Shown here: piece after piece, positions 22,369 to 54,393 of the stretch
Numbering within the stretch: the first letter of the stretch is position 1
Layout of the letters: each line of letters opens with the position of its first letter
Source of the DNA: an uncultured beta proteobacterium
GTDB lineage: Bacteria > Pseudomonadota > Gammaproteobacteria > Burkholderiales > Burkholderiaceae
Length of the DNA stretch: 64,000 nt
Assembly (NCBI GenBank): GCA_903875135.1
Contig: CAIQUZ010000037.1
Coordinates: 19,606 to 83,605 of the forward strand
Direction of reading: 5' to 3'
Notes under the pieces: model-generated
Told to the model about the DNA's origin: nothing
Database searches by the model: none
Seen by the model: the letters and a program-made list of their open reading frames with translations, nothing else
Made by a program: the position numbers and the translations under genes

Positions 22369-23384
22369 ATCTCAATAATCACTTTGCCAAAAACACGTCG
22401 CTCTTCTAATAGACGTAACCCCTCAGCTGCTTGATCTAGGGGAAATACTTGATCAATAACGGGATGTATTTGTTTATCTGCCACAAATTGAAGGCATGCT
22501 CGAATATCATCGGGCACATAAGCCCTAGAACCAATGATTTCCATCTCTCTGAACCATAAAAAACGAACATCAACGGTACACAGATGATCTACAGTCGATC
22601 CACACGTAAGAATTCGACCATTGACGGCCATGCTACGTTGTGTAGGTATCCAAGTATCACCGCCCGTAAAATTGATGGCAACATCGACACCTTTTTTACC
22701 AGTCGCAACCCATACCGCTTTAGAAAAATCAGGCTCATCAGCATAGTTGATAACATGATCAGCGCCAAGAGCTTTTAATTTTTGACTTTTTTCTTCACTA
22801 CTTGTACAAGCGTAAACTTCACACCCCGCCATCTTGGCAAACTGTAAGCAAGACACCCCAACACCGCCACTTGCACCGAGAATAAGAACTTTTTCTCCGG
22901 CCTTTAACCGCCCTCGAGTAAATAACATACGATGCGAAGTACCATAGGCAATCGGTAAAGCCGCCGCTTCAATATCATTGACGCCATCTGGAATTTCAAT
23001 TAATTGACGTTGATCGACACAAATAAATTCACAAAGGCCACCGTTTCCGTTCTCTCCTAGGACACCTCCCTCAGGAAAGCGTGGGAATAAGACGACTCTC
23101 TTTCCAAGCCAATCCTTAGAAACACCTTCACCAACCTCACGCACGATACCAACAACATCCCCACCCGGAATACGCGGCATCTTCGTTGGCATATCTGGCA
23201 TGCCATGAAGGACAAATACATCCATATAGTTCAGTCCGCAGGCTTTGACCTCAACAATGGCAAAGTTTGCTTTAACCTCTGGTTTAGGCCAATGATCGAA
23301 CTTCATCTGCTCTACACCACCATGTTGCTGAATCGCAACCACTCTCATCTGATCTATCATGCTAACCCTTAAATATTGATACAT
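22365..23384 (-). CDS. Medium-chain dehydrogenase/reductase, zinc-independent quinone/enoyl reductase type (start may be ATG 23348)
   Basis: ACGLNYMD and PGGDVVG in place of the Zn-ligand C-H/GHE motifs; GASGGVG NADPH motif; C-terminal GKVII. Confidence 0.85.
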   Translation of the reverse strand: MYQYLRVSMIDQMRVVAIQQHGGVEQMKFDHWPKPEVKANFAIVEVKACGLNYMDVFVLHGMPDMPTKMPRIPGGDVVGIVREVGEGVSKDWLGKRVVLFPRFPEGGVLGENGNGGLCEFICVDQRQLIEIPDGVNDIEAAALPIAYGTSHRMLFTRGRLKAGEKVLILGASGGVGVSCLQFAKMAGCEVYACTSSEEKSQKLKALGADHVINYADEPDFSKAVWVATGKKGVDVAINFTGGDTWIPTQRSMAVNGRILTCGSTVDHLCTVDVRFLWFREMEIIGSRAYVPDDIRACLQFVADKQIHPVIDQVFPLDQAAEGLRLLEERRVFGKVIIEI

Positions 23385-23534
23385 AGAACATTCACTATGA
23401 TCTAGTCTAATATTTTGGTTTAATCAGTGCAAATCAATTAATTACGCTTATTGTTCGTTTTTTTTAATAAATAGAATCTTACTGAAGGCATTGAGCAACA
23501 GATTCAACTTATAAATATCAAATTCGAGAAATGA

Positions 23535-24443
23535 TTAATTCAAATTGCCAATTGTTTCCATCAAAACATCAAGAATTCGCTTAGTGTTTGGTGAAAATGA
23601 TCTCAGATGTCTAGTGATCAGGCAGATTTCACGATGAATCACTGGCTCAGTTAACTCCGCAAATAAAAATTCCTGCATAGGGCCTGCTTTGGCTGCCAAA
23701 GAAGGTAGTACAGAGATCTTGCCACTTAACCTCAGCATGGCATATAAGGAGGTAGTACTTGAAGCATGATCATGAGGATCTGAGTTTTGTCCAAAAGAAA
23801 TTTCAGGGTAAGTTTCCAATAAGGCTCCAATCCCTGTATCTGAAGTAAGCCCTATATATGGATGATTCGCTAAATCAGACCACTTTAAAGGTCGATTCAT
23901 TTTCGACAAGACATGATCATGAGGCATGACAACCCCGAAGACATCATGAAGAACTGGACGATAGTCTAGCTCAGGATAGTTATGCAGACGACTCGTTAAT
24001 CCAAAATCAACTTCTCCATCTAGAACTGCACGCTCAATTTTTGCTGAACCCGCATCTTGGATTGAAATATTAACGTCAGGATACTGTTGACGAAATGTAA
24101 GTAACGCAGGAGAAAGTATATGGACGGCCATAGATGGGGCAGCAGCAATCCGAATTAAGCCTTGCTGACTTTTGGAAATTGCTTGCAAATCATTCAGTGC
24201 ATTATCAAAATCACGAATTATTTTTTCAGCTACAGGCTGGAACTTAATCGCATCCTCAGTCAATTCAACCCTTCGAGTTGATCGCTCAAAGAGTTTCAGT
24301 CCAATCTCTTCCTCAAATTGCTGAATCGTCGCAGTTAATGTCGATTGAGTTTGAAATAATTGGGCAGAGGCTAAAGTAAATGAACCTGTTTTTGCAACAG
24401 CTAAAAATGAACGCAGATGACGTAAGCTAATTTTTCTGATCAT
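23535..24443 (-). CDS. LysR-family transcriptional regulator
   Basis: LRHLRSFLAVAKTGSFTLASAQLFQTQSTLTATIQQFEEEIGLKLFERSTRRVELT. Confidence 0.95.
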   Translation of the reverse strand: MIRKISLRHLRSFLAVAKTGSFTLASAQLFQTQSTLTATIQQFEEEIGLKLFERSTRRVELTEDAIKFQPVAEKIIRDFDNALNDLQAISKSQQGLIRIAAAPSMAVHILSPALLTFRQQYPDVNISIQDAGSAKIERAVLDGEVDFGLTSRLHNYPELDYRPVLHDVFGVVMPHDHVLSKMNRPLKWSDLANHPYIGLTSDTGIGALLETYPEISFGQNSDPHDHASSTTSLYAMLRLSGKISVLPSLAAKAGPMQEFLFAELTEPVIHREICLITRHLRSFSPNTKRILDVLMETIGNLN

Positions 24444-24472
24444 AGTAAAGATGGGTGCTTTGTTTCGAACAT

Positions 24473-24784
24473 TTAACCACCACCTCTTCTTGTATACAAA
24501 TCAAATCGATCCATCACTACATTGATTTTAGATATACCGATCTTATTTTTGGAAAACAAAAGCTGTACTTTTAAAGTTGGTATTGACAATAAAGCGATCT
24601 GACGCGGCTTTTGAGTTGTTGCACAAACTTTGATCATTGCTTCTGTAATTTCTTGAAACTTCTTTTGATCAATCTCGATATCAGTTAGTACGTAGAGATC
24701 ACCTAAGGCATTAGGCAACCATCTCAACAACTCTTGTTTAGTACAACCCATGTTACGGGTAATGGCAATATCGTCAGATAACAC
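24473..24784 (-). CDS. Small conserved-looking hypothetical protein closing the aor operon (AorE-like position); likely GTG start at 24784, ORF track starts at 24814
   Basis: Intact ORF starting 5 nt after the moaD-like stop; RNMGCTKQELLRWLPNALG N-terminus; ends YTRRGGG. Confidence 0.7.
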   Translation of the reverse strand: MLSDDIAITRNMGCTKQELLRWLPNALGDLYVLTDIEIDQKKFQEITEAMIKVCATTQKPRQIALLSIPTLKVQLLFSKNKIGISKINVVMDRFDLYTRRGGG

Positions 24785-24789
24785 GCGAT

Positions 24790-25044
24790 TTATCCGCCTG
24801 CTACCGGGGGACAAATAGCTAAAGCATCATCTTCTTGCAAAATGTACCCCATTCTTAGGGCTGGCTCAATATATTTACCATTCACTAAAACTAAATGCGC
24901 TGACTTCTCAGGAATTTTATAAAGATGGATCACCGTTCCAATATTGGTCCCTTCAGGAACCTCAATTAAAGACTCAACATTACTAATTTTAGAAGCTGGT
25001 AAATATTGATTCAGGCTGGCGAACAGTTTTAAGGTAACTTGCAT
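24790..25044 (-). CDS. MoaD/ThiS-family sulfur carrier (AorD-like)
   Basis: MQVTLKLFASL...LVLVNG...PPVAGG, ubiquitin-like with C-terminal GG. Confidence 0.92.
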   Translation of the reverse strand: MQVTLKLFASLNQYLPASKISNVESLIEVPEGTNIGTVIHLYKIPEKSAHLVLVNGKYIEPALRMGYILQEDDALAICPPVAGG

Positions 25045-25053
25045 TGACCTATT

Positions 25054-26319
25054 TTACGTCTTCCAAGAGGCTTGTTCCTGGCCTTTTTCTAAATAAGCTT
25101 GCATCACCTTGGTTGGATCCCCAAGAAGCTTATCTTTCCAATGACCTAATTTCACTTTAGTTTGTATTAAACCCCGCATTGCACCAATATGATCAGTCAT
25201 GCCAAGGCTTGTGGCTCCAATTAAAATATCATCTGAAAATTCTAAATGAAGATACTTATAATTTAACTCATCAACCAACTCTGCGTGCTCACCACCATCG
25301 ATACCAGCCCAAAGACCAAAAGAAGAGGAAATCAAACCTAAGGTGTCCAACACATTCACTTGGAAACTTCCAGTGCTATTCGATACTCCACCACTCATAT
25401 TCACCGCAGCGATCGTCGCCTGATCCGCAGCATTGGGCTGTATCGCGTTAATCATTCGCTGCCCTGTTGAGAAATCAATACTTTCGGTAACGTCACCTGC
25501 GGCATAGATGTCAGGAATCGAAGTCTGCATATATTCATTGACGAAAATACCTTTTTCGCAATGGATTCCAGAGCCTTTTAAAAATTCAATATTCGCTTTT
25601 ATACCTGTAGCAGAAATAATCGTATCAACAATCAATGTCTCTCCATTGGAAAGACTGACTTTTAAAGCGTCACCCTCTTTAACAATTTTTTCTACTTTGG
25701 TTTGCGTAAAGACTTTGACGCCTTTTGACTCCACCCATTTTTTGATCATTTGACCGGCCGTTTGGGTCATCATGCGAGGCACCATCCGATTTTCCATTTC
25801 GACAACCGTCAGCTGAATATCTTTACTCGCAAGCGCTTCTAAAATAATACAACCAATAAAGCCCGCACCCATTTGTAAAACTCTTGTGCCTGAGTCTGTT
25901 TTTTCATGAATATTTCTTGCATCTTCCAACGTCCAGCAAGAGTAAATACCAGGTAAGTCCATTCCTTGAATCGGTGGACGAATCGGTGTAGAACCCGTCG
26001 CAATCAGCAATTTATCATATGCAAGTTCTTGCGTTTGACCATGAAGGTCAATGGTGATTTTTTTTAACTCGGGCAAAACCGAAATAACTTTAGCCTGAAG
26101 TAACTCAATGTTCAGTTTTTTAAAGTGGTCTTGATCTTTACGTAAATAGGTTCCTGACTCTTGAATGTTGCCAATCAATAAATAAGGAATGGCCATCCTT
26201 GAATAAGGAGGCTCTGACTCTGCTCCAATCAAAATGATTTGATCATGGGGTGAGCGTTTACGAATTGTCTCCGCAGCCACAACACCTGCTGGACCATTAC
26301 CGATAATGACATGTTTCAT
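25054..26319 (-). CDS. aorC: FAD/NAD oxidoreductase subunit of AOR
   Basis: IIGNGPAG, YDKLLIATGS, MGAGFIG, IYAAGD; 421 aa, directly after aorB. Confidence 0.85.
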   Translation of the reverse strand: MKHVIIGNGPAGVVAAETIRKRSPHDQIILIGAESEPPYSRMAIPYLLIGNIQESGTYLRKDQDHFKKLNIELLQAKVISVLPELKKITIDLHGQTQELAYDKLLIATGSTPIRPPIQGMDLPGIYSCWTLEDARNIHEKTDSGTRVLQMGAGFIGCIILEALASKDIQLTVVEMENRMVPRMMTQTAGQMIKKWVESKGVKVFTQTKVEKIVKEGDALKVSLSNGETLIVDTIISATGIKANIEFLKGSGIHCEKGIFVNEYMQTSIPDIYAAGDVTESIDFSTGQRMINAIQPNAADQATIAAVNMSGGVSNSTGSFQVNVLDTLGLISSSFGLWAGIDGGEHAELVDELNYKYLHLEFSDDILIGATSLGMTDHIGAMRGLIQTKVKLGHWKDKLLGDPTKVMQAYLEKGQEQASWKT

Positions 26320-26323
26320 GAAT

Positions 26324-28171
26324 TTACAAACCTAGACGAGTTCGAGTATCCGTCTTCAGCATTCCATCATGATCCCATCCACGTAACTCATAATATTCAG
26401 GCAACATCTTCTCTAAACCACTTACAGATCCTTTGCCAGGACCTGTTTTTGCCGCCTCAGTCATGAGTCGCTTTGGCAACTTATCATCTTTACTCGTGAA
26501 ACCGGCACGATTATTAAAGTCGCGTTCCATATTCCAAATACGCTCGCCAATTGTAGTGAGATTCTCTACCGTAAATTCATCACCACATGCGGCCTGCAGT
26601 TGTGGAGCAACATCAGCTAACGTCCAAGCAAAGCTAGTGAAAATACAAATACCCGCAGAGTCAAACGCGGCAGTTGCATCTTGGAAGGCTTTGACTAAGC
26701 CGGGCTTACCAACAGTATCCGCAGGTTCAGTTTTAACAGGAATACCTAAAACTTCTGAAGCAATCGTATAGCCACGTAAATGGCATGCGCCACGATTTGA
26801 TGTGGCATAAGCTAAGCCAATGCCTTGAATCACTCGACCATCATAAGCTGGGAATTCTTGCCCCTTTACACTCATTGATAAATCTGGCTGCCCATATTTA
26901 GCGGTGAGTCTGGCTGAGCCTAATGCAATTTCTTTACCAAAGCCTTCGCCTTTAGCAGTAATCTCGACAAAATGACAGAGTGCTTGTGCAGAACCAAACT
27001 TTGCATCAATACCAAGCTGTTCTTTAGTGAGAAGGCCCATTTCGTAGAGCTCCATAACAGCGCCAACCGTTGCGCCAAACGTAATTGGATCAAAGCCATC
27101 TTCATTACAAATCATATTAGCGTATTGCAATGCCTCTAAATCATTCACACCATTGGCAGCACCAAGCGCCCAGGCCGCTTCATATTCAAGCCCACCAGAT
27201 GCGCCAAAATACTGAGGTTTATTTTGAATGGAAAAATGCGACTCATCAATTTTAGAAATTCGACCGCAGGCAATAGTACAACCAAAACAAGCCTGATTCG
27301 TTACCAACTGCGCTTTGCCATCACTCGCTCTAGGCGCTGCCATGGCTTCCGCAGAAATATCTTTAGCACCTTCGAATTGAACATCACGATGATTACGAGT
27401 TGGTAATGCGCCAACTTCATTAATCACATTCATCAGTACCTGAGTACCAAAAGTTGGCAATCCTTGACCAGTCACAGCATTGCCTGCAAGCACCGCTTTA
27501 GCGGCTTTTGTTGCAGCCATAAAAGCTTTAGGATTCTTAAAGTTACCTACTCCTTTGGTTCCTCTGACGGCAATGGCTTTAAGATTTTTGCTACCCATTA
27601 CAGCACCTACACCAGATCGACCAGCTGCACGGTGTAAATCATTAACCACAGCAGCAAATAAAACTTGGTTTTCGCCAGCACGACCAATACACGAAACACG
27701 AATTTGTGGATCCTGGTGCTTAGCTTTAATGGCTGGTTCTGTTTCCCAAACAGACTTACCCCATAAATCCGTTGCGTCGATCAAACGAACGTCATCGTCC
27801 TCGATCAATAGATATACCGGCTTTGGTGACTTGCCTTCAAAAATAACCATATCCCAACCAGCCATTTTTAGCTCTGCTCCCCAGTAACCGCCAGAGTTAG
27901 AACAGGCTATTGCGCCAGTGAGCGGTCCCTTTGTTATAACTGTGTAACGACCACCGGTAGAAGCCATCGTTCCTGTTAATGGACCAGTTGCCCAAATCAT
28001 CTTATTTTCTGGTGAAAGAGGATCAACATTAGCATCCATCTCTTCAACTAAATATTTAGTACCTAAGCCCCTTGAACCTAAATAATCTTTTGCCCATTGC
28101 ATATTGGTCGCTTCAGATTGGCAAGTACCTTGAGTAAGGTTAACGCGTAGTAATTTTCCGGCCCATGACAT
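26324..28171 (-). CDS. aorB: Tungsten-cofactor aldehyde oxidoreductase catalytic subunit
   Basis: SNSGGYWGAELKMAGWD, AAGRSGVGAVMGSKNLKAIAV, CFGCTIACGR, LEYEAAWALG, ATSNRGACH, PEYYELRGWD; 615 aa AOR family. Confidence 0.95.
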   Translation of the reverse strand: MSWAGKLLRVNLTQGTCQSEATNMQWAKDYLGSRGLGTKYLVEEMDANVDPLSPENKMIWATGPLTGTMASTGGRYTVITKGPLTGAIACSNSGGYWGAELKMAGWDMVIFEGKSPKPVYLLIEDDDVRLIDATDLWGKSVWETEPAIKAKHQDPQIRVSCIGRAGENQVLFAAVVNDLHRAAGRSGVGAVMGSKNLKAIAVRGTKGVGNFKNPKAFMAATKAAKAVLAGNAVTGQGLPTFGTQVLMNVINEVGALPTRNHRDVQFEGAKDISAEAMAAPRASDGKAQLVTNQACFGCTIACGRISKIDESHFSIQNKPQYFGASGGLEYEAAWALGAANGVNDLEALQYANMICNEDGFDPITFGATVGAVMELYEMGLLTKEQLGIDAKFGSAQALCHFVEITAKGEGFGKEIALGSARLTAKYGQPDLSMSVKGQEFPAYDGRVIQGIGLAYATSNRGACHLRGYTIASEVLGIPVKTEPADTVGKPGLVKAFQDATAAFDSAGICIFTSFAWTLADVAPQLQAACGDEFTVENLTTIGERIWNMERDFNNRAGFTSKDDKLPKRLMTEAAKTGPGKGSVSGLEKMLPEYYELRGWDHDGMLKTDTRTRLGL

Positions 28172-28204
28172 AGTGTGTTTCCTCGATGAATTCGTTAAGT
28201 TATA

Positions 28205-28678
28205 TTAAGCGTTCGTTTGATTACCTAGTTTTGCAGCCCAGGTACGCATTTTGTCTAAACCTGTCCAATCAGCATCCACATAGGTGATGGCGCCAGTTGG
28301 GCATGCATCAGCACAAGCAGGGTCTCCTCCACATAAATCACATTTTTGTACTTTGCCAGTTTCCTGAACATAATTGACTGTACCAAATGGGCAAGAAATA
28401 GTGCAGACTTTACATCCTACACAAACGTCCTCTATAACCACTTTTGCTCCAGTAGCAGCATCAATTCGGATCGCATCAACAGGACAAGCTTTTAAGCACC
28501 AAGCCTCATCACATTGTGTGCACGTATAGGGAACTTTTTTACCTGTTTCATGAAAATCAAATACCTTGATTCTGGATTTGGCAGGATTAAATACTCCGTA
28601 ATTCTCAAAACTACAAGCCATCTCGCACTGTAAACAACCAGTACATTTATCCGCATTAATATGAAGTGATTTCTGCAT
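28205..28678 (-). CDS. aorA: 4x[4Fe-4S] polyferredoxin subunit of AOR
   Basis: CTGCLQCEMAC, CTQCDEAWCLKACP, CVGCKVCTISCP, KCDLCGGDPACADACP; C-terminal helix WTGLDKMRTWAAKL. Confidence 0.9.
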   Translation of the reverse strand: MQKSLHINADKCTGCLQCEMACSFENYGVFNPAKSRIKVFDFHETGKKVPYTCTQCDEAWCLKACPVDAIRIDAATGAKVVIEDVCVGCKVCTISCPFGTVNYVQETGKVQKCDLCGGDPACADACPTGAITYVDADWTGLDKMRTWAAKLGNQTNA

Positions 28679-28741
28679 GTAAAGTCCCTAGCAATAAAAA
28701 GGTTATTGATAAGATTCTACTATTTTCTTATTTCAAGAAGG

Positions 28742-28757
28742 TTAGGGTTTTCCCTAA
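28742..28757. promoter_or_regulatory. Palindromic candidate operator TTAGGG-TTTT-CCCTAA in the aorA/bug divergent promoter
   Basis: Perfect 6-4-6 inverted repeat in an AT-rich intergenic region; regulator unknown. Confidence 0.45.
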
Positions 28758-28943
28758 AACTTAACAATTTCAACTCTCAAGTTAGACTAATTCCTTTAAT
28801 CTAGTAAATTATTTCCATAAAATCTTTTTTATTAAAAACATCATATTTAAATTAAATAAAACGCCCTCAAAAGGGTATTTAAGAGAATCTATCAACAAAA
28901 AGACTAAGTTCTTTGAAATTGAAAATATCTCCAGGAGAAAAAG

Positions 28944-29912
28944 ATGTCTCGCTATCTGTCAATAATCGGAATGTGCTTCGCTCTAGTCTTTGCAATATCT
29001 TCGCAAGCGCAAAATACGTCTTACCCAGCTCGCGCTGTCAAATTTATCGTTCCAATCACGCCTGGGGGGAGTAATGATGTCGTAGCCCGAGTAATCGCTC
29101 AAAAATTGAGTGAGCAATGGGGACAACCCGTGACAGTAGATAACCGCCCTGGTGCTGGTATGAATTTAGGTGCGGATATTGTTGCAAAGAGCCCCGCTGA
29201 TGGATATACCTGGCTACTTGGGGCAAATAATATTTTCGTCACCAACCCTCATATGGGAAAAATGCCTTTTGATGTATTCAAAGACTTTACGCCAATCAGT
29301 CAAGTCGCTTTAGTACCTTTCGTTTTAGTTGTTCATCCTTCAGTCCCAGCCAAAACCGTTACTGAATTAGTAGCTTATGCAAAGGCGAACCCAGATAAAC
29401 TCAATTTTGGTTCATCTGGAAATGGATCCCCTCAGCAACTCGCAACAGAAATGTTAAATCACGCTGCAGGTATTCAAATGCAGCATGTTCCCTATAAGGG
29501 TGCTTTGCCAGTTATTACTGATTTAATCGGCGGTCGACTTCAAGTCTTTATTGGAGCCGTGAATTCTCTACTTCCTCATATTAAAGATGGTAAGCTGCGT
29601 TTAATTGCCAGCGCTGGTGGGAAACGGATCTCATCTTTTCCAGATTTACCAACTATTGCCGAAACAATCCCTGGTGTAGAGTTAGATGTTTGGCTTGGTG
29701 TATTCATGCCAGCTGGAGTACCGAAAGATATCATCAATAAAGTGAATGGTGATATCGTTCGAGTTCTTCAACTGCCCGAGGTGAAATCAAACTTGAATGG
29801 GCAAGGTATTGAAGCAGCGCCAAGCACTCCAGAGGCACTCACCAATACCATCAAAGAGGACTATGCCCGCTGGGGTAAAGTCATTAAAGAAGCCAACATT
29901 AAAGCAGAATAA
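28944..29912 (+). CDS. Bug/TctC substrate-binding protein
   Basis: YPARAVKFIVPITPGGSND, DNRPGAG, SPADGYT, HVPYKG. Confidence 0.93.
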   Translation: MSRYLSIIGMCFALVFAISSQAQNTSYPARAVKFIVPITPGGSNDVVARVIAQKLSEQWGQPVTVDNRPGAGMNLGADIVAKSPADGYTWLLGANNIFVTNPHMGKMPFDVFKDFTPISQVALVPFVLVVHPSVPAKTVTELVAYAKANPDKLNFGSSGNGSPQQLATEMLNHAAGIQMQHVPYKGALPVITDLIGGRLQVFIGAVNSLLPHIKDGKLRLIASAGGKRISSFPDLPTIAETIPGVELDVWLGVFMPAGVPKDIINKVNGDIVRVLQLPEVKSNLNGQGIEAAPSTPEALTNTIKEDYARWGKVIKEANIKAE

Positions 29913-29914
29913 AG

Positions 29915-31693
29915 ATGATTAATCACGATACCCCAACTCCAAACACTCAGCCCTCAACTTATTGGGGTAGCGACTCTATTGCGGATTGCCTGCATGAAAT
30001 GCAGGTACCCTATATCGCCCTCAATCCTGGTGCAAGTTATCGGGGTTTACATGATAGCCTCGTGAACCACTTAGGTAACCAAGCTCCGCAAATGCTATTG
30101 TGCTTACACGAAGAAGTGGCTATCGCCATTGCTCAAGGATTTGCCAAAGCCTCAGGCAAGATGATGGGAGCTTTGGTGCACTCAAACGTTGGTTTGATGC
30201 ATGCAACGATGGCTGTCTTCAATGCTTGGTGTGATCGGATGCCAATCTTAATGTTAGGTGCTACCGGTCCTTGGGATGCTGCACGTCGTCGTCCCTGGAT
30301 AGATTGGATTCATACTTCTAGCGATCAAGGTGCTTTAGTGAGAGACTTCACCAAGTGGGATAACCAGCCAGGTTCAATACCTGCAGCTATAGAAGCACTT
30401 CTGCGAGGGAGTCAAATAGCACAAACCGCGCCTCGTGGTCCGGTATATATCAATCTTGATGCAGCATTGCAAGAAAGCAAAATGGAAGGTTTAATGGCCA
30501 TCCCAGATGCAACTCGCTTTGCAGCGCCAAAATCCTCACCACCCTCTACAAATGATGTTGAGCGAGCAGCTCAATTACTTTCTCATGCAAAAAATCCCGT
30601 TATCTTGATGGGACGAATGTCTCGTAATTTATCGGATTGGGATACGCGAGTACAGTTATCTGAAAAACTTCAAGCCGCGGTAATTACCGACCTTAAAAAT
30701 GCAGCCAGTTTTCCGACAGACCACCCACAACATGTCGGATCACCATCTTACTTTATGTCTGCAGAAGCTTGTGCAGCAGTTCGTGAAGCGGATGTGATTT
30801 TAATGTTGGACTGGGTCGATCCAGGAGGTGCTTTTAAACAGGCTCTTCAAAATAAACCATGCCAAGCTCAAATTATTAATGTCTCTTTGGACATGCATAG
30901 TCATCGTGGATGGAGTATGGATGGTGGTAGTTTGCCTGCGGTTGATATCTACATGCTTTGCGAACCTGATGATGCCATTGGTGCTTTAAATAAAGTGATC
31001 TCAGCTCAATCTCAAAAATCTTGGCCCGTTAAAAATACTCTTCCGATAATGCCCGATGATGATGTTGTTAGCCTTCGCGCACTGTCTGATGTGCTTCAAG
31101 AATGTACTAAAGATCTCGATATTTGTTTAGCTCGACTTCCTCTAGGTTGGAATGGTGCTTATCGGCATTTTCGACATCCAATGGATTATCTAGGCGCAGA
31201 TGGCGGCGGAGGTGTTGGTGCTGGCCCAGGAAATACGGTAGGTGTAGCTCTTGCATTAAGAGATATTCAATCTACCCGAGTTCCAGTAGCACTTCTTGGA
31301 GATGGCGATTTTTTAATGAGCAATACTGCCATATGGACAGCAGTCCACTACGGAATACCCTTATTAATCATTGTCTGTAATAACCATTCATACTTTAATG
31401 ATGAGCTCCATCAAGAACGTGTCGCAAAAGAGCGTCTGCGTCCCACAGAAAATAAATGGATTGGTCAACGTATGAGTGAACCTGAAATTGACATTGCACA
31501 AATGACACGCTCTATGGGAGCCGAAGGTATCGGTCCAGTTCGTCGAGCTCAAGATCTTCAAGCCGCAATAACAGAAGGATTACGACTCGTACAAATGGGA
31601 AAAGTCTGCGTCATTGATGCTTGCGTTGCCCCAGGATACGATGCCAATATGAGTGGAAACGCCAGCAACAACTCAGCAGTCCATAAACGTTAA
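29915..31693 (+). CDS. ThDP-dependent enzyme (benzoylformate decarboxylase / ALS-like family)
   Basis: LNPGASYRGLHDS, CLHEEVA, GDGDFLM...NNHSY ThDP motif. Confidence 0.9.
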   Translation: MINHDTPTPNTQPSTYWGSDSIADCLHEMQVPYIALNPGASYRGLHDSLVNHLGNQAPQMLLCLHEEVAIAIAQGFAKASGKMMGALVHSNVGLMHATMAVFNAWCDRMPILMLGATGPWDAARRRPWIDWIHTSSDQGALVRDFTKWDNQPGSIPAAIEALLRGSQIAQTAPRGPVYINLDAALQESKMEGLMAIPDATRFAAPKSSPPSTNDVERAAQLLSHAKNPVILMGRMSRNLSDWDTRVQLSEKLQAAVITDLKNAASFPTDHPQHVGSPSYFMSAEACAAVREADVILMLDWVDPGGAFKQALQNKPCQAQIINVSLDMHSHRGWSMDGGSLPAVDIYMLCEPDDAIGALNKVISAQSQKSWPVKNTLPIMPDDDVVSLRALSDVLQECTKDLDICLARLPLGWNGAYRHFRHPMDYLGADGGGGVGAGPGNTVGVALALRDIQSTRVPVALLGDGDFLMSNTAIWTAVHYGIPLLIIVCNNHSYFNDELHQERVAKERLRPTENKWIGQRMSEPEIDIAQMTRSMGAEGIGPVRRAQDLQAAITEGLRLVQMGKVCVIDACVAPGYDANMSGNASNNSAVHKR

Positions 31694-31719
31694 TTTTTTC
31701 TATAATTGAGTAACTCCAC

Positions 31720-33183
31720 ATGTCAGATACCAATAACTACTTACAACTTCTTCCTAAACATCGTGACCTTTATTATGGAGGATCTTGGCATCAACCGATG
31801 GGTGGTTATCTAGAAACCATGAACCCAGCGACTGGCGAATCTTTAGGCTTATGCGCTGAAGCAAATGCACAAGATGTAGATGCAGCAGTTCAAGCTGCAC
31901 ACGCAGGTTTTTCTGTATGGAAAAAATTCAAACCCCTAGAACGTGCTGCTCTATTAAAAAAGGTGGCGGTAGTACTTCGTGAAAATGCTTTTGAACTAGC
32001 TATGATCGACGCAGCTAATTGTGGTAACCCGATTAGTGAAATGCAACGAGATGCACTCATCGCTGCAGCTCAAATCGATTTTTATGCTGGCTTAGCCACA
32101 GAAATCAAAGGCGAAACCTTACCAATGGGAGATGATATTCTGAATTATTCGGTACGGGAGCCTTATGGTGTTTGTGCACGTATTGTTGCGTATAACCACC
32201 CGATTATGTTTACAGCCGCAAAAATGGCGCCGCCATTAATTGCGGGCAATACAGTCATTATGAAGCCTCCTTATCAGGCTCCTTTATCAAGCTATCGTAT
32301 GATGGAACTGATTGACGGAATTCTCCCACCAGGTGTTCTTAACATCATTAGCTCAGGTGCTATAGGCGGACAAGCACTCGTCACTCATCCATTAGTCCCG
32401 CGTTTATCGCTGATTGGTAGCGTTCCTACTGGACGCGCTATAGCAAAAGCAGCGGCCGATCAGCTCAAACACGTCACTCTTGAATTGGGTGGTAAAAATG
32501 CCTGCATTATTTATCCTGATGCTGATCTCAGTAAAGCAATTACAGGCGCCATTAATGGGATGAACTTTACATGGTGTGGTCAAAGCTGTGGTTCTACATC
32601 ACGCCTATTTGTTCACTCCTCAATCTATAAACAAGTCATAGACGGTCTTCTTCAAGCTGTAAAACATTACAAACCGGGCATACCGACTGATATGGCCACC
32701 ACAATGGGGTCTATAGTTTCTAAAGCCCAATGGGGGAAAATTATGAACTATATCGAGATCGCAAAACAAGACGGTGCACAACTCATTTATGGTGGAAATG
32801 TACCAAGCACACCCTCACTAGCAAATGGTTGGTTTATTGAACCCACTATTTTTACTGGGGTTACTCAGAATATGCGAATTGCTAATGAAGAAGTTTTCGG
32901 CCCTATATTGTCTGTCATACAGTGGGATGATGAGGACCAAATGTTCGATCAAGTAAATGCTGTTGAATATGGTTTAACAGCCTCTATTTGGACCACAAAT
33001 CTATCAAAAGCACATCGTGCGGCTAGTCGTGTTCAAGCCGGGTATATCTGGGTTAATCACTCTAGTAGTCATTTTATTGGAGCATCTTTTGGAGGCTACA
33101 AACAATCTGGCATCGGTCGTGAAGAAGGCTTTGATGAATTATTTAGCTACTCACAACACAAAAACGTCCATGTAGTTTTGTAA
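31720..33183 (+). CDS. Aldehyde dehydrogenase, PhdK (2-carboxybenzaldehyde dehydrogenase)-like subfamily
   Basis: LELGGKNA, GMNFTWCGQSCGSTSRLFVH, EEVFGP, FGGYKQSGIGRE. Confidence 0.9.
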   Translation: MSDTNNYLQLLPKHRDLYYGGSWHQPMGGYLETMNPATGESLGLCAEANAQDVDAAVQAAHAGFSVWKKFKPLERAALLKKVAVVLRENAFELAMIDAANCGNPISEMQRDALIAAAQIDFYAGLATEIKGETLPMGDDILNYSVREPYGVCARIVAYNHPIMFTAAKMAPPLIAGNTVIMKPPYQAPLSSYRMMELIDGILPPGVLNIISSGAIGGQALVTHPLVPRLSLIGSVPTGRAIAKAAADQLKHVTLELGGKNACIIYPDADLSKAITGAINGMNFTWCGQSCGSTSRLFVHSSIYKQVIDGLLQAVKHYKPGIPTDMATTMGSIVSKAQWGKIMNYIEIAKQDGAQLIYGGNVPSTPSLANGWFIEPTIFTGVTQNMRIANEEVFGPILSVIQWDDEDQMFDQVNAVEYGLTASIWTTNLSKAHRAASRVQAGYIWVNHSSSHFIGASFGGYKQSGIGREEGFDELFSYSQHKNVHVVL

Positions 33184-49739: not shown

Positions 49740-52586
49740 TTAGTGACTATATCCAATGTTGGCATAGGGAACCCCACCTTTTTTCACTGAAACAGCACAA
49801 AATTTAAATTCTGGTATCTTGCCAAAAGGATCTAGTGCTGGATTGGTCATCAAATTTGCAGCTGCTTCAAAATAGGCAAATGGAATAAAAATTGACCCAT
49901 TGGGCGTGCCATCATCTACCCGAACATGGATGGCAACTTCTCCTCGCCTTGAAGCAATCGTCACAACATCACCAGCAACTAAGTTCAATTTGTTCATATC
50001 GCAAGAGTTGATTGCGACTGTTGCCATCGGCTCAAGGGCATCGAGGATCGTAGCCCTTCTCGTCATACTTCCTGTGTGCCAATGCTCTAATTGTCGACCA
50101 GTAATCAGGACAAAGGGATACTCTTGATCAGGCATTTCATTGGCGGGAATAATGTCTACTGGAACTAAATGCACCCGACCATCGCTGGTTGGAAAATGAT
50201 CTGTAAAGACGATCGGTTGACCAGGGTCATCGTCACTGAGACAAGGATAGGTGACGCTAGATTCTTTTTCTATACGACCCCAACTAATTCCATGGATGAC
50301 CTCATGCATCGTTTGGCGCATTTCTTCATAAACCTGTGCGACTCCAAATTCTGGCCCTTGATAATCCCACGTCAGCCCCATCCGCTGAGCCAACTGCTGA
50401 ATGATCCATAAATCGCCACGCGCCTCACCCGGCGGAGACAATGCTTTTTTTCCAAGTTGTATCATGCGATCCGTGTTACTCACTGTTCCCATTTTTTCTG
50501 GCCACGCACTTGACGGAAGTACCACGTCAGCTAACCAAGCAGTCTCTGTCATAAAGATATCTTGCACAACTAAATGCTCTAAAGAGGCTAAAGCATGTCG
50601 TGCGTGGTTTAAGTTGGGGTCACTCATGGCTGGGTTTTCACCCATAATATACATTCCACGTATCTTATGAGGATCGGTATCTGGCGCCAATATCTTGCCC
50701 ATAATTTCTACCACCGTATAACCAGGTACTCTATCTAATGGGGTCTGCCAAAAATTTTCAAACCACAGATGGACAGCTTCATTATCTACCCGCTGATAAT
50801 TTGGAAACATCATGGGAATCAAACCCGCATCACTCGCACCTTGGACATTATTTTGTCCTCTAAGAGGATGGAGTCCAGACCCAGGCTTGCCAATTTGTCC
50901 AGTAATCGTCGCCAATGCAATCAAGCATCTTGCATTGTCCGTGCCGTGAATATGCTGACTAATTCCCATGCCCCACAAAATCATAGCAGATTTTGCTTGT
51001 GAATAAGCACGAGCAACTTCACGAATTAATACAGCCTCAACACCACAAATTGGCGCCATGAGTTCAGGACTATATTTTTGAACATTATTTTTCAGAGCCG
51101 TAAAGTTGATTGATCGCAAATCAATAAATTCTTTATCGATCAAGTCCTCCTCAATAATCGTATAAATCATGGCATTCAAAAGAGCCACATCCGTATCTGG
51201 ATGAAACTGCATAGTTCGCCAAGCTTGCTTACTAATCTCTGTCATTCTTGGATCTGCTAGAACAATTTTTGCGCCGTTCTTAGCGGCATTTTTTAACCAT
51301 GTAGCGGCTACCGGATGATTTGAAGTTGGATTGGATCCAATCAAAAAGATCAACTCTGAATGCTCAACATCATTGACCTGATTACTCACCGCTCCTGATC
51401 CAACCCCTTCTAACAAAGCAGCAACACTAGAGGCATGGCACAAACGAGTACAGTGATCCACATTATTACTACCAAAACCCGTTCTAACTAATTTCTGAAA
51501 TAAGTATGCCTCTTCGTTACTGCCTTTGGCAGACCCAAACCCAGCCAATACTTTATGACCATAAGTCTTTTTTAAATGATTCAACTTTCCACCAACCAAA
51601 TCGAGTGCTTCTTCCCAAGAGGCTTCTCTAAAAACATCCGAAATCTGTTGATGAACAGTATCACTATCCAATACCTTTGCTACTCCCTCTTTACGGATTA
51701 ATGGTTTAGTAAGGCGCTGGGAATGATGCACATAATCAAAACCAAATCGACCCTTAACACATAAGCGACTTGAATTAGCTGGGCCATCCCGCCCATCCAC
51801 ACTCAGAATTTTTTCATCCTTAATGTTGTAGGTAATCAAACAACCGACCCCACAAAATGGGCAGACAGAATCAACTTTACGATCGACTACTTGATTCCCA
51901 ATATGTAATTTAGGCATTAATGCACCGGTAGGACAAGCTTGTACACATTCGCCACAAGCCACACAGGAACTGTCTCCCATGGAATCATTCATATCAAAAA
52001 CAATTTGACTATGATGACCACGCATCGCATATCCAATTACATCATTGACCTGTTCTTCACGGCAGGCTCTTACGCAGCGATTGCATTGAATACAAGCATC
52101 CAAGTTAACAGCCATCGCCGGATGAGTATCATCCGACGGAACGGGCTCACGCTTTAACGCTTCAAGAGCCGGTCGAACTTGCACACCGCATTCATTTGCC
52201 CAATAAGAAAGCTCCCCATGTCCTAAATCTTCATTTCCATCAACCCACTTCAAGCCTTCTTTGGGCATATCGGACAGTAATAACTCCAATACCATGTTTT
52301 GATTATTGATTGCTTTTTGACTATTGGAGTGAACCCTCATCCCTTCTTTAACGGTTCGACAACAACTCGGGGCAAGCGTTCTTTCTCCATCAATCTCAAT
52401 CACACACGCCCGACAATTACCATCAGGACGATAGCCCTCTTTAAAACACAAATGAGGTATCTCTACCCCTTCACGTTTTGCAGCTGACAAAATAGTTTCG
52501 CCGACATATGCCTGAATCAATTTGTCGTTTAGTGAAAATTCAAGCGTTTGACGAAGCTCATTTTTTAGATGTTTAGGTGCGTTCAT
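49740..52586 (-). CDS. fdh1A: NAD-linked formate dehydrogenase alpha subunit, Fdh1A-type (probably tungsten)
   Basis: GYRPDGNCRAC, CIQCNRCVRAC, CVACGECVQACP, CPFCGVGC...RLCVKG, DHCTRLCHASS (Cys-His active site), LRGQNNVQG; lacks the His/Cys-ligated cluster motif of FdsA. Confidence 0.88.
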   Translation of the reverse strand: MNAPKHLKNELRQTLEFSLNDKLIQAYVGETILSAAKREGVEIPHLCFKEGYRPDGNCRACVIEIDGERTLAPSCCRTVKEGMRVHSNSQKAINNQNMVLELLLSDMPKEGLKWVDGNEDLGHGELSYWANECGVQVRPALEALKREPVPSDDTHPAMAVNLDACIQCNRCVRACREEQVNDVIGYAMRGHHSQIVFDMNDSMGDSSCVACGECVQACPTGALMPKLHIGNQVVDRKVDSVCPFCGVGCLITYNIKDEKILSVDGRDGPANSSRLCVKGRFGFDYVHHSQRLTKPLIRKEGVAKVLDSDTVHQQISDVFREASWEEALDLVGGKLNHLKKTYGHKVLAGFGSAKGSNEEAYLFQKLVRTGFGSNNVDHCTRLCHASSVAALLEGVGSGAVSNQVNDVEHSELIFLIGSNPTSNHPVAATWLKNAAKNGAKIVLADPRMTEISKQAWRTMQFHPDTDVALLNAMIYTIIEEDLIDKEFIDLRSINFTALKNNVQKYSPELMAPICGVEAVLIREVARAYSQAKSAMILWGMGISQHIHGTDNARCLIALATITGQIGKPGSGLHPLRGQNNVQGASDAGLIPMMFPNYQRVDNEAVHLWFENFWQTPLDRVPGYTVVEIMGKILAPDTDPHKIRGMYIMGENPAMSDPNLNHARHALASLEHLVVQDIFMTETAWLADVVLPSSAWPEKMGTVSNTDRMIQLGKKALSPPGEARGDLWIIQQLAQRMGLTWDYQGPEFGVAQVYEEMRQTMHEVIHGISWGRIEKESSVTYPCLSDDDPGQPIVFTDHFPTSDGRVHLVPVDIIPANEMPDQEYPFVLITGRQLEHWHTGSMTRRATILDALEPMATVAINSCDMNKLNLVAGDVVTIASRRGEVAIHVRVDDGTPNGSIFIPFAYFEAAANLMTNPALDPFGKIPEFKFCAVSVKKGGVPYANIGYSH

Positions 52587-54382
52587 GACATTAACTCATG
52601 GGCAAAATATTTCTGAATACATTCAATCGAATTAGGCGCCGCTTGTCCTAAACCACAAATGGATGAGTCTTTCATGACCATCGATAAATCATTTAATACG
52701 CCATGATCCCAATGACGCTCTTCCATGAGTCGACTTGCTTTTGCAGTTCCTACTCGACAAGGCGTACATTGACCACAACTTTCGTGCTCAAAGAATTTCA
52801 TGACATTCAGAGCCGCATCTTTGGCTTTGTCATGCTGACTGAGGATCATCACAGCTGCTGAACCAATAAAACATCCGTAGGGCTGAAGGGTATCAAAATC
52901 GAGAGGAACTTGATTGAGCGATGCGGGCAATATTCCACCAGAGGCCCCACCCGGCAAATACGCATAGAACTTGTGACCTTCTATCATTCCCCCACAAAAC
53001 TCATCAATGAGTTCTTGTACCGTAATACCCGCAGGGGCAAGTTTGACACCAGGATAGTTGACACGACCACTGACGCTAAAACTCCTCAACCCCTTACGAC
53101 CATTTCGTCCAAAAGAAGAGAACCAATCTGCCCCCTGCTCCAGTACATCTCTGACCCAATACAGTGTTTCGAAATTATGTTCTAAAGTGGGCTTACCAAA
53201 TAAACCCACCTCAGCAATATATGGCGGTCGCATTCTTGGCTCACCGCGCTTGCCTTCAATACTTTCAATCATGGCCGACTCTTCACCACAAATATACGCC
53301 CCTGCTCCACGGCGCAACTCAATGAAAGGCAAAGGTTGGGGATGATGCAATTTTAGAACTTCAAGTTCCTTTTCTAATAACTCACGACAACCATGATATT
53401 CATCACGTAAATAGATATAACACGCATCAATACCAACCACATGTGCCGCAATTAAAACGCCTTCAATAAAACGATGTGGATCTCGCTCTAAATATGTTCG
53501 GTCTTTAAATGTTCCGGGCTCACCCTCATCAATATTGACCGCCATGAGCCTTGGTGCATCAAAACCACGAACAATACGCCATTTTTTCCCTGCTGGAAAA
53601 CCTGCACCGCCCAAACCACGTAAACCTGACTTTTCCATCTCATCTAAAACCGACTCAACAGATTGAGCACCTGATTGAAGTTGACCGAGTAATTGATAAC
53701 CACCATGTTGTTTGTAGGTTTCATAACCACAATAAGATGGGCTGATATTGTTATCATGCTTTGGGGAAATACTCGACTCAATATGTTCCTTGGGATCAAA
53801 ATGACTTTGATGATTAGGTAACGGGTGTTTCATCAACTCTTGATGAACGATAGATTGAACTTGATCTAAATTAGCGAAAGCAATCGGATGTTGATGGATC
53901 ACCACAGATGGTGCCTGCTCACATCGTCCGATACAAGGCACTGCCTCTACATGGATTTCTTTTTGTGGAAAAGCTGCCGACACTTGCTGTAGCAATTTTT
54001 TAGAACCTTCCAATTCACAAGAAACACTATTGCAAACCCGGATCGTGATGGTTGGCGCTAACTGATCGTCCTCAAGGACTTTAAAATGATGGTAAAAAGT
54101 GGCGACTTCATACACCTCTGCCATCGAAATTTTCATTAATTTACCAAGTGCGGCAAGATGTCGCTGGTATAAACACAAATAAACATCATTTAATCGATGC
54201 AGATTTTCAATTAAATACTCTCTAGCTAAGTAATGAGAAGGTATTAAATTTTCAACTTCACCAGATGAAATAACGTCAACTTGTCGACCCTTGAGCTTAC
54301 TTTTTTTCCTCAGCAACTCCTGCATCTGGGTAGATGTTGCGAGTGTCACGGGCGGTATAGTTGATGATGTATTTTTACTCAT
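52583..54382 (-). CDS. fdh1B: Formate dehydrogenase beta subunit, fused NuoE+NuoF diaphorase (start ATG 54382)
   Basis: EVATFYHHF, RVCNSVSC...CIGRC (2Fe-2S); GLRGLGGAGFP, DEGEPGTFKDR, GAGAYICGEES, CGQCTPCR, SICGLG. Confidence 0.88.
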   Translation of the reverse strand: MSKNTSSTIPPVTLATSTQMQELLRKKSKLKGRQVDVISSGEVENLIPSHYLAREYLIENLHRLNDVYLCLYQRHLAALGKLMKISMAEVYEVATFYHHFKVLEDDQLAPTITIRVCNSVSCELEGSKKLLQQVSAAFPQKEIHVEAVPCIGRCEQAPSVVIHQHPIAFANLDQVQSIVHQELMKHPLPNHQSHFDPKEHIESSISPKHDNNISPSYCGYETYKQHGGYQLLGQLQSGAQSVESVLDEMEKSGLRGLGGAGFPAGKKWRIVRGFDAPRLMAVNIDEGEPGTFKDRTYLERDPHRFIEGVLIAAHVVGIDACYIYLRDEYHGCRELLEKELEVLKLHHPQPLPFIELRRGAGAYICGEESAMIESIEGKRGEPRMRPPYIAEVGLFGKPTLEHNFETLYWVRDVLEQGADWFSSFGRNGRKGLRSFSVSGRVNYPGVKLAPAGITVQELIDEFCGGMIEGHKFYAYLPGGASGGILPASLNQVPLDFDTLQPYGCFIGSAAVMILSQHDKAKDAALNVMKFFEHESCGQCTPCRVGTAKASRLMEERHWDHGVLNDLSMVMKDSSICGLGQAAPNSIECIQKYFAHELMS

Positions 54383-54393
54383 AAATACCAAGT

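Follow-up and report, generated by a model that had tools for sequence, protein, structure and literature searches.

The closest described relative of the system considered here is AOR_Aa, the aldehyde oxidoreductase (AOR) of the denitrifying, aromatic-compound-degrading bacterium Aromatoleum aromaticum EbN1 (PDB 8C0Z; PMC6365974, PMC9295118, PMC10413684). The AOR_Aa subfamily was placed in aerobic or denitrifying mesophiles by Arndt et al. (2019), who also stated that the bacterial AORs of this branch all have three subunits (PMC6365974). NAD-reducing, three-subunit enzymes of this kind, the N-type WORs, account for 26% of the 444 enzymes of clade 87 and occur in Bacteria only (PMC12318220). 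A further relative is the bifurcating WorABCSL of Acetomicrobium mobile (PDB 9MQX), in which, as in the HDCR nanowires, a polyferredoxin subunit polymerises through its C-terminal helix. The present analysis concerns a window of 64,000 nucleotides (the whole stretch of DNA that was analysed, from contig CAIQUZ010000037.1 of an uncultured Burkholderiales bacterium), in which five co-directional open reading frames (ORFs) on the minus strand, at 24473-28678, correspond to aorA, aorB, aorC, aorD and aorE. Domains and families were assigned with Pfam and NCBIfam, and structure matches were obtained by searching all PDB sequences. Listed in the order of transcription, with window coordinates, the genes are as follows.

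28205..28678, minus strand: aorA, a polyferredoxin "wire" subunit of 157 aa (Pfam Fer4 families of the 4Fe-4S dicluster type; PDB 8C0Z chain C)
26324..28171, minus strand: aorB, the catalytic tungsten-bis-pyranopterin subunit of 615 aa, with one [4Fe-4S] cluster (AFOR_N and AFOR_C; PDB 8C0Z chain A)
25054..26319, minus strand: aorC, the FAD-containing, NAD+-reducing subunit of 421 aa (Pyr_redox_2; PDB 8C0Z chain E)
24790..25044, minus strand: aorD, a MoaD/ThiS-like, putative tungsten-cofactor maturation factor of 84 aa (ThiS, moaD_arch, AGG end)
24473..24814, minus strand: aorE, 113 aa as the longest ORF from TTG at 24814 and likely 103 aa from GTG at 24784 (homologues)

The same five genes stand in the same order in A. 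aromaticum, with near-identical subunit sizes; PDB 8C0Z is the best solved-structure match for AorA, AorB and AorC alike, and the identities to the A. aromaticum counterparts, estimated by eye in the alignments, are roughly three-quarters for AorB and AorA and about 60% for AorC. The coordinates, sizes and order of the five ORFs given in a preliminary description of this window were all borne out, and its identification of a complete Aromatoleum-type aorABCDE operon is correct, given the top match to 8C0Z and the shared order and sizes. The locus very probably (probability about 0.85) represents a functional aorABCDE operon for a three-subunit, NAD+-linked tungsten-bis-pyranopterin AOR of the AOR_Aa subfamily, that is, an N-type WOR of clade 87; with this group it has the equivalents of WorL and WorS and the FAD subunit in common, and no difference was seen. 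In contrast to the bifurcating WorABCSL, whose structure 9MQX is the second-best PDB match for both AorB and AorA, the locus has no Bfu-type module, and one FAD protein on its own serves as the partner that reduces NAD. No equivalog-level NCBIfam name was obtained for any of the five proteins. As an enzyme type the locus is not new: published work already covers the AOR_Aa subfamily with its subunits and filament helix, and reports it from aerobic or denitrifying mesophiles. The analysis shows directly which genes are present (those for transport and cofactor synthesis included), how far residues are conserved, where the enzyme occurs and what selection acts on it.

The catalytic subunit aligns with 8C0Z chain A at 1026 bits and without gaps across residues 1-615, the next PDB match reaching 691 bits, and its AFOR_N and AFOR_C domains are recognised with Pfam E-values of 8.6e-81 and 6.3e-132. 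In AOR_Aa, the pterin and Mg contacts of AorB are R75, N92, G94, R181, A182, D361, D504, I508, C509 and V510; the ligands of its cluster FS0 are C295, C298, C302 and C509; E331, H464 and Y443 are the proposed catalytic residues, and Y468, F511 and F514 form an aromatic pocket (PMC10413684). All of these residues are found in the window protein, except that isoleucine replaces valine at position 510. Bar positions 508 and 510, none of them varies among 81 sequences, the window protein plus 80 relatives; this comparison covers the listed residues other than Tyr443, which was seen in the window AorB only, from the 8C0Z alignment. A "His484" is given as 79% conserved in the family in the structural study, which uses His464 elsewhere (PMC10413684); position 484 varies in this clade and is alanine here, His464 is invariant, and "His484" is a misprint for His464.

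AorA matches 8C0Z chain C with an E-value of 4e-81; it contains 16 cysteines, and four [4Fe-4S] motifs are located at positions 12-22, 53-65, 86-96 and 113-126. Its C-terminal helix, DADWTGLDKMRTWAAKLGNQTNA (about residues 138-157), agrees with the clade consensus DA.WTG...M..WA.KLGNQ and can be aligned to 8C0Z up to residue 153. When this helix was deleted, from residue 138 onwards, the A. aromaticum enzyme no longer formed filaments, and Winiarska et al. (2023) described the last 20 AorA residues as highly conserved within the subclade (PMC10413684). Judged by this alignment, AorA retains the helix by which filaments form in A. aromaticum, and the C-terminal helical tail that the preliminary description had pointed out is kept. 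AorC matches 8C0Z chain E with an E-value of 3e-147; the N-terminal dinucleotide-binding motif GNGPAG and Arg41 are present, and the segment AIQPNAADQ, which contains Gln294, is identical to that of A. aromaticum. Alignment to the three A. aromaticum subunits, including the AorA tail, had been proposed as a check on the preliminary description; the tungsten-cofactor, cluster, catalytic and aromatic-pocket residues and the helix match, and AorD ends in GG as it does in AOR_Aa.

Across the related loci (n = 80, labelled by L-numbers, with L002 as the nearest relative), the five-gene order is kept in 71-80 of the 80. In the AorB tree, which follows taxonomy, the window sequence falls with a support of 99 inside a 13-row clade that holds named Polynucleobacter sequences; the GC content of the operon (0.40-0.44) is in line with that of the genome (0.42), and the ratios of nonsynonymous to synonymous substitution (dN/dS) against L002 are 0.013 for aorA, 0.022 for aorB, 0.058 for aorC and 0.097 for aorD. 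Since the tree follows taxonomy, the GC content equals that of the genome and dN/dS is low, the aor operon is vertically kept and under strong purifying selection, with no recent import.

The genome that carries the window (2.70 Mb in 129 contigs, 42% GC, an estimated 92.8% complete with 1.2% contamination) is that of an aerobic freshwater Polynucleobacter, in the GTDB genus that holds Polynucleobacter, as two other genomes of this genus have AorB matches at the very coordinates of the P. yangtzensis MWH-JaK3 (L010) and P. victoriensis MWH-VicM1 (L012) loci; this small-genome, aerobic host differs from A. aromaticum and its denitrifying, aromatics-degrading way of life. Three heme-copper oxidase subunit I genes are present, no NarG- or NapA-type enzyme was recognised and no NiFe hydrogenase was found in this 93%-complete genome, which fits the "apparently aerobic" genome of the preliminary description. 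Its molybdenum bis-pyranopterin guanine dinucleotide enzymes resemble formate dehydrogenases, a possible assimilatory nitrate reductase and NuoG.

When one genome per prokaryotic species was scanned, AorB relatives were found in at least 590 species genomes. The best 80 of these at least 590 matches are all at least 79% identical and come almost entirely from Burkholderiales, many from known-aerobe genera; the genera among these 80 include Polynucleobacter (85-88%), Limnohabitans, Hydrogenophaga, Tepidimonas, Methylibium, Rubrivivax, Polaromonas and Herminiimonas. An AorB 96-98% identical to that of the window is found in two metagenome-assembled genomes from freshwater. Within the host's genus, 37 of 150 sampled species and 26 of 103 high-quality genomes (the host's own genome counted) have AorB; within the order, it occurs in 31 of 300 evenly drawn genomes, representing 19 of 144 genera. 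Because of this wide distribution and of the published occurrence in aerobic or denitrifying mesophiles (Arndt et al., 2019), the premise of the preliminary description that tungsten biochemistry is unexpected in this lineage was wrong. A link between Polynucleobacter and aldehyde ferredoxin oxidoreductase was not found in the searchable literature, and tungsten appears in the searchable Polynucleobacter literature in passing mentions only.

The preliminary description had also proposed a search for tupABC and for a tungsten-specific moeA; the first part yielded a candidate, whereas the moeA check cannot discriminate. A tupABC-like three-gene unit is located on another contig, C78 (L081:64-2313), and its best or only NCBIfam names are TupA, TupB and TupC; TupB (176 bits) and TupC (115 bits) both score below their equivalog cut-offs. 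The TupA-like protein matches the solved tungstate-binding proteins 3LR1 (2e-71) and 5MY5, and a separate modA is present whose product scores above the ModA cut-off. The pterin pathway is complete, with moaA, moaC, moaD, moaE and mobA together with two moeA paralogues. These transport and cofactor genes make tungsten use possible. Gene position is the better indirect sign of it: among the related loci, tupA is situated directly upstream of aorA in 14 of 80, with tupB beside tupA in 11 of these 14, and in several Polynucleobacter genomes tupA lies 6-9 kb from aorB. Neither tupA nor a second moeA can serve as a marker of AOR carriers in the genus, and both were rejected as such: 138 of 150 genomes in the genus have a tupA-like gene, with or without aorB, and 140 of 140 high-quality genomes have two moeA paralogues, regardless of aorB. 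Of 103 high-quality genomes of the genus, 100 have the tupABC-like operon as a whole, and AOR occurs in only about a quarter of its species; a core tupABC without AOR points either to another common tungsten enzyme (for example a formate dehydrogenase-like one) or to a transporter that also serves molybdate. None of the findings that the preliminary description had named as speaking against it, namely molybdenum incorporation with no tungstate uptake genes, loss of the filament interface, or a host that is a known anaerobic AOR carrier, was encountered.

Two separate observations concern these transport genes. In a complete 1.7 Mb genome of the same genus (G146), aorB (C1:120047-121891) has two in-frame stops and tupA (C1:543539-544279) has eight; the two genes appear to be decaying together, which fits an eroding genome, possibly that of an endosymbiotic Polynucleobacter. 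On contig C78 of the window's genome, the start of tupA is overlapped by about 40 nt, on the same strand, by a Ser/Thr protein kinase gene (439 aa; L081:2273-3592, minus strand), an unusual neighbour for a metal-uptake operon.

The two accessory proteins differ in how well they can be classified. AorD is recognised by Pfam ThiS (2e-09) and NCBIfam moaD_arch (7e-07); aorD is present in 76 of the 80 related loci, and its product ends in AGG in all 76. A homologue of aorE directly follows aorD in 71 of these 76 loci, sequence evidence that marks the fifth ORF as a genuine gene. As its start, GTG at 24784, 5 nt past the aorD stop, is more likely than TTG at 24814, judging by the N-termini of its homologues and the DNA sequence itself; the resulting protein has 103 aa. 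AorE shows the conserved motifs R.MGC, LP.A, IAL.x.P.L.V.F.F and FDLYxxRGGG and ends in RGGG, a Gly-Gly-Gly ending being found in 70 of 73 family sequences. It has no Pfam or NCBIfam match, and none of 61 family members matches any Pfam family, ThiS included. An AlphaFold2 model (predicted local distance difference test score 91, predicted template modelling score 0.81) has the element order beta-alpha-beta4-alpha; comparison of the model with solved structures gave no significant fold (best E-value 9e-3, to part of E2 acyltransferase cores), and a profile search of PDB sequences gave chance-level matches only. Arndt et al. (2019) stated that AorD and AorE both resemble MoaD (PMC6365974). As a relative of MoaD, AorE is ruled out by Pfam, by the fold search and by a profile-profile comparison with AorD (probability 1.2%); the resemblance holds only for its C-terminal GGG tail. 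AorE accordingly represents a conserved family without a Pfam or NCBIfam model, with a predicted alpha/beta fold that would not be a beta-grasp. Recombinant AOR_Aa reached 16 U/mg when aorDE were co-expressed, up from 4.5 U/mg (PMC9295118), and the published label "putative maturation factor" therefore stands.

By analogy with the A. aromaticum enzyme, from which its metal, NAD coupling, filament formation and substrate range are taken, AorB would oxidise a hydrated aldehyde at the tungsten cofactor, aided by Glu331, His464 and Tyr443; the electrons would pass from the AorB cluster through the four AorA clusters to the FAD of AorC and on to NAD+. AorD and AorE may aid cofactor maturation, the pterin would be provided by moaA, moaC, moaDE and moeA, and tungstate would be supplied by the TupABC transporter encoded elsewhere in the genome. 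The operon was inherited within the Polynucleobacter genus, and its likely role is aldehyde oxidation or detoxification, possibly of aldehydes from a neighbouring thiamine diphosphate (ThDP)-dependent enzyme.

As a caveat, several points weigh against a functional, tungsten-using enzyme in this host. The extreme C-terminus of AorC is unlike that of A. aromaticum, where P419, M420 and R424 touch AorA' and AorB (PMC10413684), and it varies across the clade; aorE evolves fast (dN/dS of 0.46 against L002); and the TupA-like protein scores 226 bits against an equivalog cut-off of 400. Because tupA and both moeA genes are core genes of the genus, they are no specific mark of AOR use. A 2025 review names Brevibacillus massiliensis as the sole aerobe known to produce an AOR (PMC12096430); by its description, this enzyme is likewise a tungsten AOR in an aerobic host, and it differs from the present one in being monomeric, of ferredoxin type and from a different branch. 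A wider claim would be that tungsten is a routine trace-metal need of abundant oxic freshwater bacterioplankton, with a core Tup transporter and an oxygen-tolerant, filament-forming tungsten AOR that is carried by a quarter of Polynucleobacter species and active in aerated cells; this claim is possible and is put forward tentatively. A rival reading, rather unlikely, is that the operon is intact and used only under micro-oxic or anoxic conditions (on particles, in sediment or in stationary phase), in which case it would be silent on how tungsten enzymes fare in oxic water. Oxygen sensitivity is the general rule among AOR-family enzymes, the half-life of AOR_Aa in air is 1 h once purified, its reactivity with H2 requires strict anoxia (PMC6365974, PMC9295118), and a single aerobe is reported to make an AOR; yet AOR_Aa in extracts is unaffected by air, keeping 100% of its activity after 24 h of exposure (PMC6365974), no molybdenum enzyme of anaerobic respiration, such as NarG or NapA, was recognised in the 93%-complete host genome, and the gene is widespread in genera of known aerobes. 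[quoted passage not shown]

Molybdenum might also take the place of tungsten in this lineage, with the Tup-like transporter taking up molybdate. The core status of tupA in the genus, its lack of co-variation with aorB, the sub-threshold TupA score and the many molybdenum enzymes of the genome (Mo-hydroxylases in the window, formate dehydrogenase-like genes) would all agree with this; however, AOR_Aa contains tungsten and no detectable molybdenum, in its recombinant form as well (PMC6365974, PMC9295118), dependence on tungsten is treated as obligate for the AOR family (PMC12096430), the residues contacting the tungsten cofactor are all unchanged, the genome has a separate modA, and tupA repeatedly adjoins aorA in related loci, which together render the substitution improbable. 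Hard to sustain, too, is a recent horizontal gain from an anaerobic or denitrifying degrader of aromatic compounds, or a decaying remnant. The flanks are unlike those of other Polynucleobacter loci, sharing their context with only 2-4 loci, and the operon is patchy within the genus (25%); against this, the ORFs are intact with dN/dS values of 0.01-0.1, the GC content matches the genome, the AorB sequence falls within the Polynucleobacter clade, and no Aromatoleum, Thauera or Azoarcus is found among the best 80 of at least 590 matches, so that such a gain or remnant is very improbable; transfer from an anaerobe is rejected by the AorB tree.

The functional, vertically kept AOR_Aa-type operon preferred here has a modest ecological value, in that this enzyme type and a Tup-type transporter are common in cultivable, aerobic freshwater bacteria with small genomes; P. 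yangtzensis and P. victoriensis could be easy hosts for testing whether such tungsten enzymes work in air. If the wider claim for oxic bacterioplankton were true, tungsten enzymology would extend well past the anaerobes and the single aerobe reported to make an AOR. AorE is flagged as a conserved, unclassified accessory protein; under the wider claim, it would be a maturation factor not described before, whose non-ubiquitin fold bears a Gly-Gly tail.

The operon's neighbours, a LysR gene and a tctC-ThDP-ALDH unit, differ from those in A. aromaticum; the features on either side are as follows.

23535..24443, minus strand: LysR-family regulator gene, 29 nt downstream of aorE (HTH_1 and LysR_substrate)
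28679..28943, no strand: intergenic region (265 nt) that separates aorA from the divergent tctC (sequence read)
28944..33183, plus strand: divergent unit with genes for a tctC-type solute receptor, a 592-aa ThDP-dependent enzyme and a 487-aa NAD aldehyde dehydrogenase (TctC, TPP_enzyme_N/M/C, ALDH)

The adjacency of the LysR gene and aorE is common only to the closest relative loci, and the LysR protein may be considered a candidate local regulator. The intergenic region presumably holds the promoters of both the aor and the tctC units. Upstream of aorA it contains a palindrome of the type AGGG-N4-CCCT, TTAGGGAAAACCCTAA, at 28742-28757, the single occurrence of this motif in the 2.7 Mb genome. 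In 17 of 76 loci, from several genera (e.g. L004, L010, L012, L013 and L040), the same motif precedes aorA by 77-118 nt, against an expectation of 0.0024 per 250 nt elsewhere in the same loci, an enrichment of about 100-fold, and it is a candidate operator. Scans of the region for consensus promoters and terminators gave no more sites than shuffled sequence, and an Rfam search of 23300-29100 at E <= 1 gave no match, hence no molybdenum- or tungsten-cofactor riboswitch. In 19 relatives, a regulator of about 400 aa with GAF and HTH_8 (Fis-type) domains and no sigma-54 domain is encoded divergently about 155 nt upstream of aorA; this gene (e.g. L013:4139-5350, minus strand) is the commonest aor neighbour in Comamonadaceae-type loci. 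As a local regulator in the window it is excluded, since the window's genome has no homologue.

The tctC-ThDP-ALDH context is found in only 2-4 of the 80 loci, the closest ones. For the ThDP enzyme, PRK08327 and benzoylformate decarboxylase come nearest among the named families, neither match reaching the cut-off. Because the ThDP enzyme and the NAD aldehyde dehydrogenase adjoin the operon, the flank suggests a route from a 2-oxo acid through an aldehyde to an acid, in which AOR might back up or parallel the NAD dehydrogenase, as it does in the phenylalanine catabolism of A. aromaticum (PMC6365974).

Elsewhere in the window, at 49740-54391 on the minus strand, a 948-aa formate dehydrogenase alpha subunit that exceeds the NCBIfam Fdh-alpha cut-off is fused to a NuoG-like N-terminus and adjoins a NuoF-like protein and a major facilitator superfamily transporter of the lactate or oxalate/formate type; this region is a candidate NAD-linked molybdenum or tungsten formate dehydrogenase.

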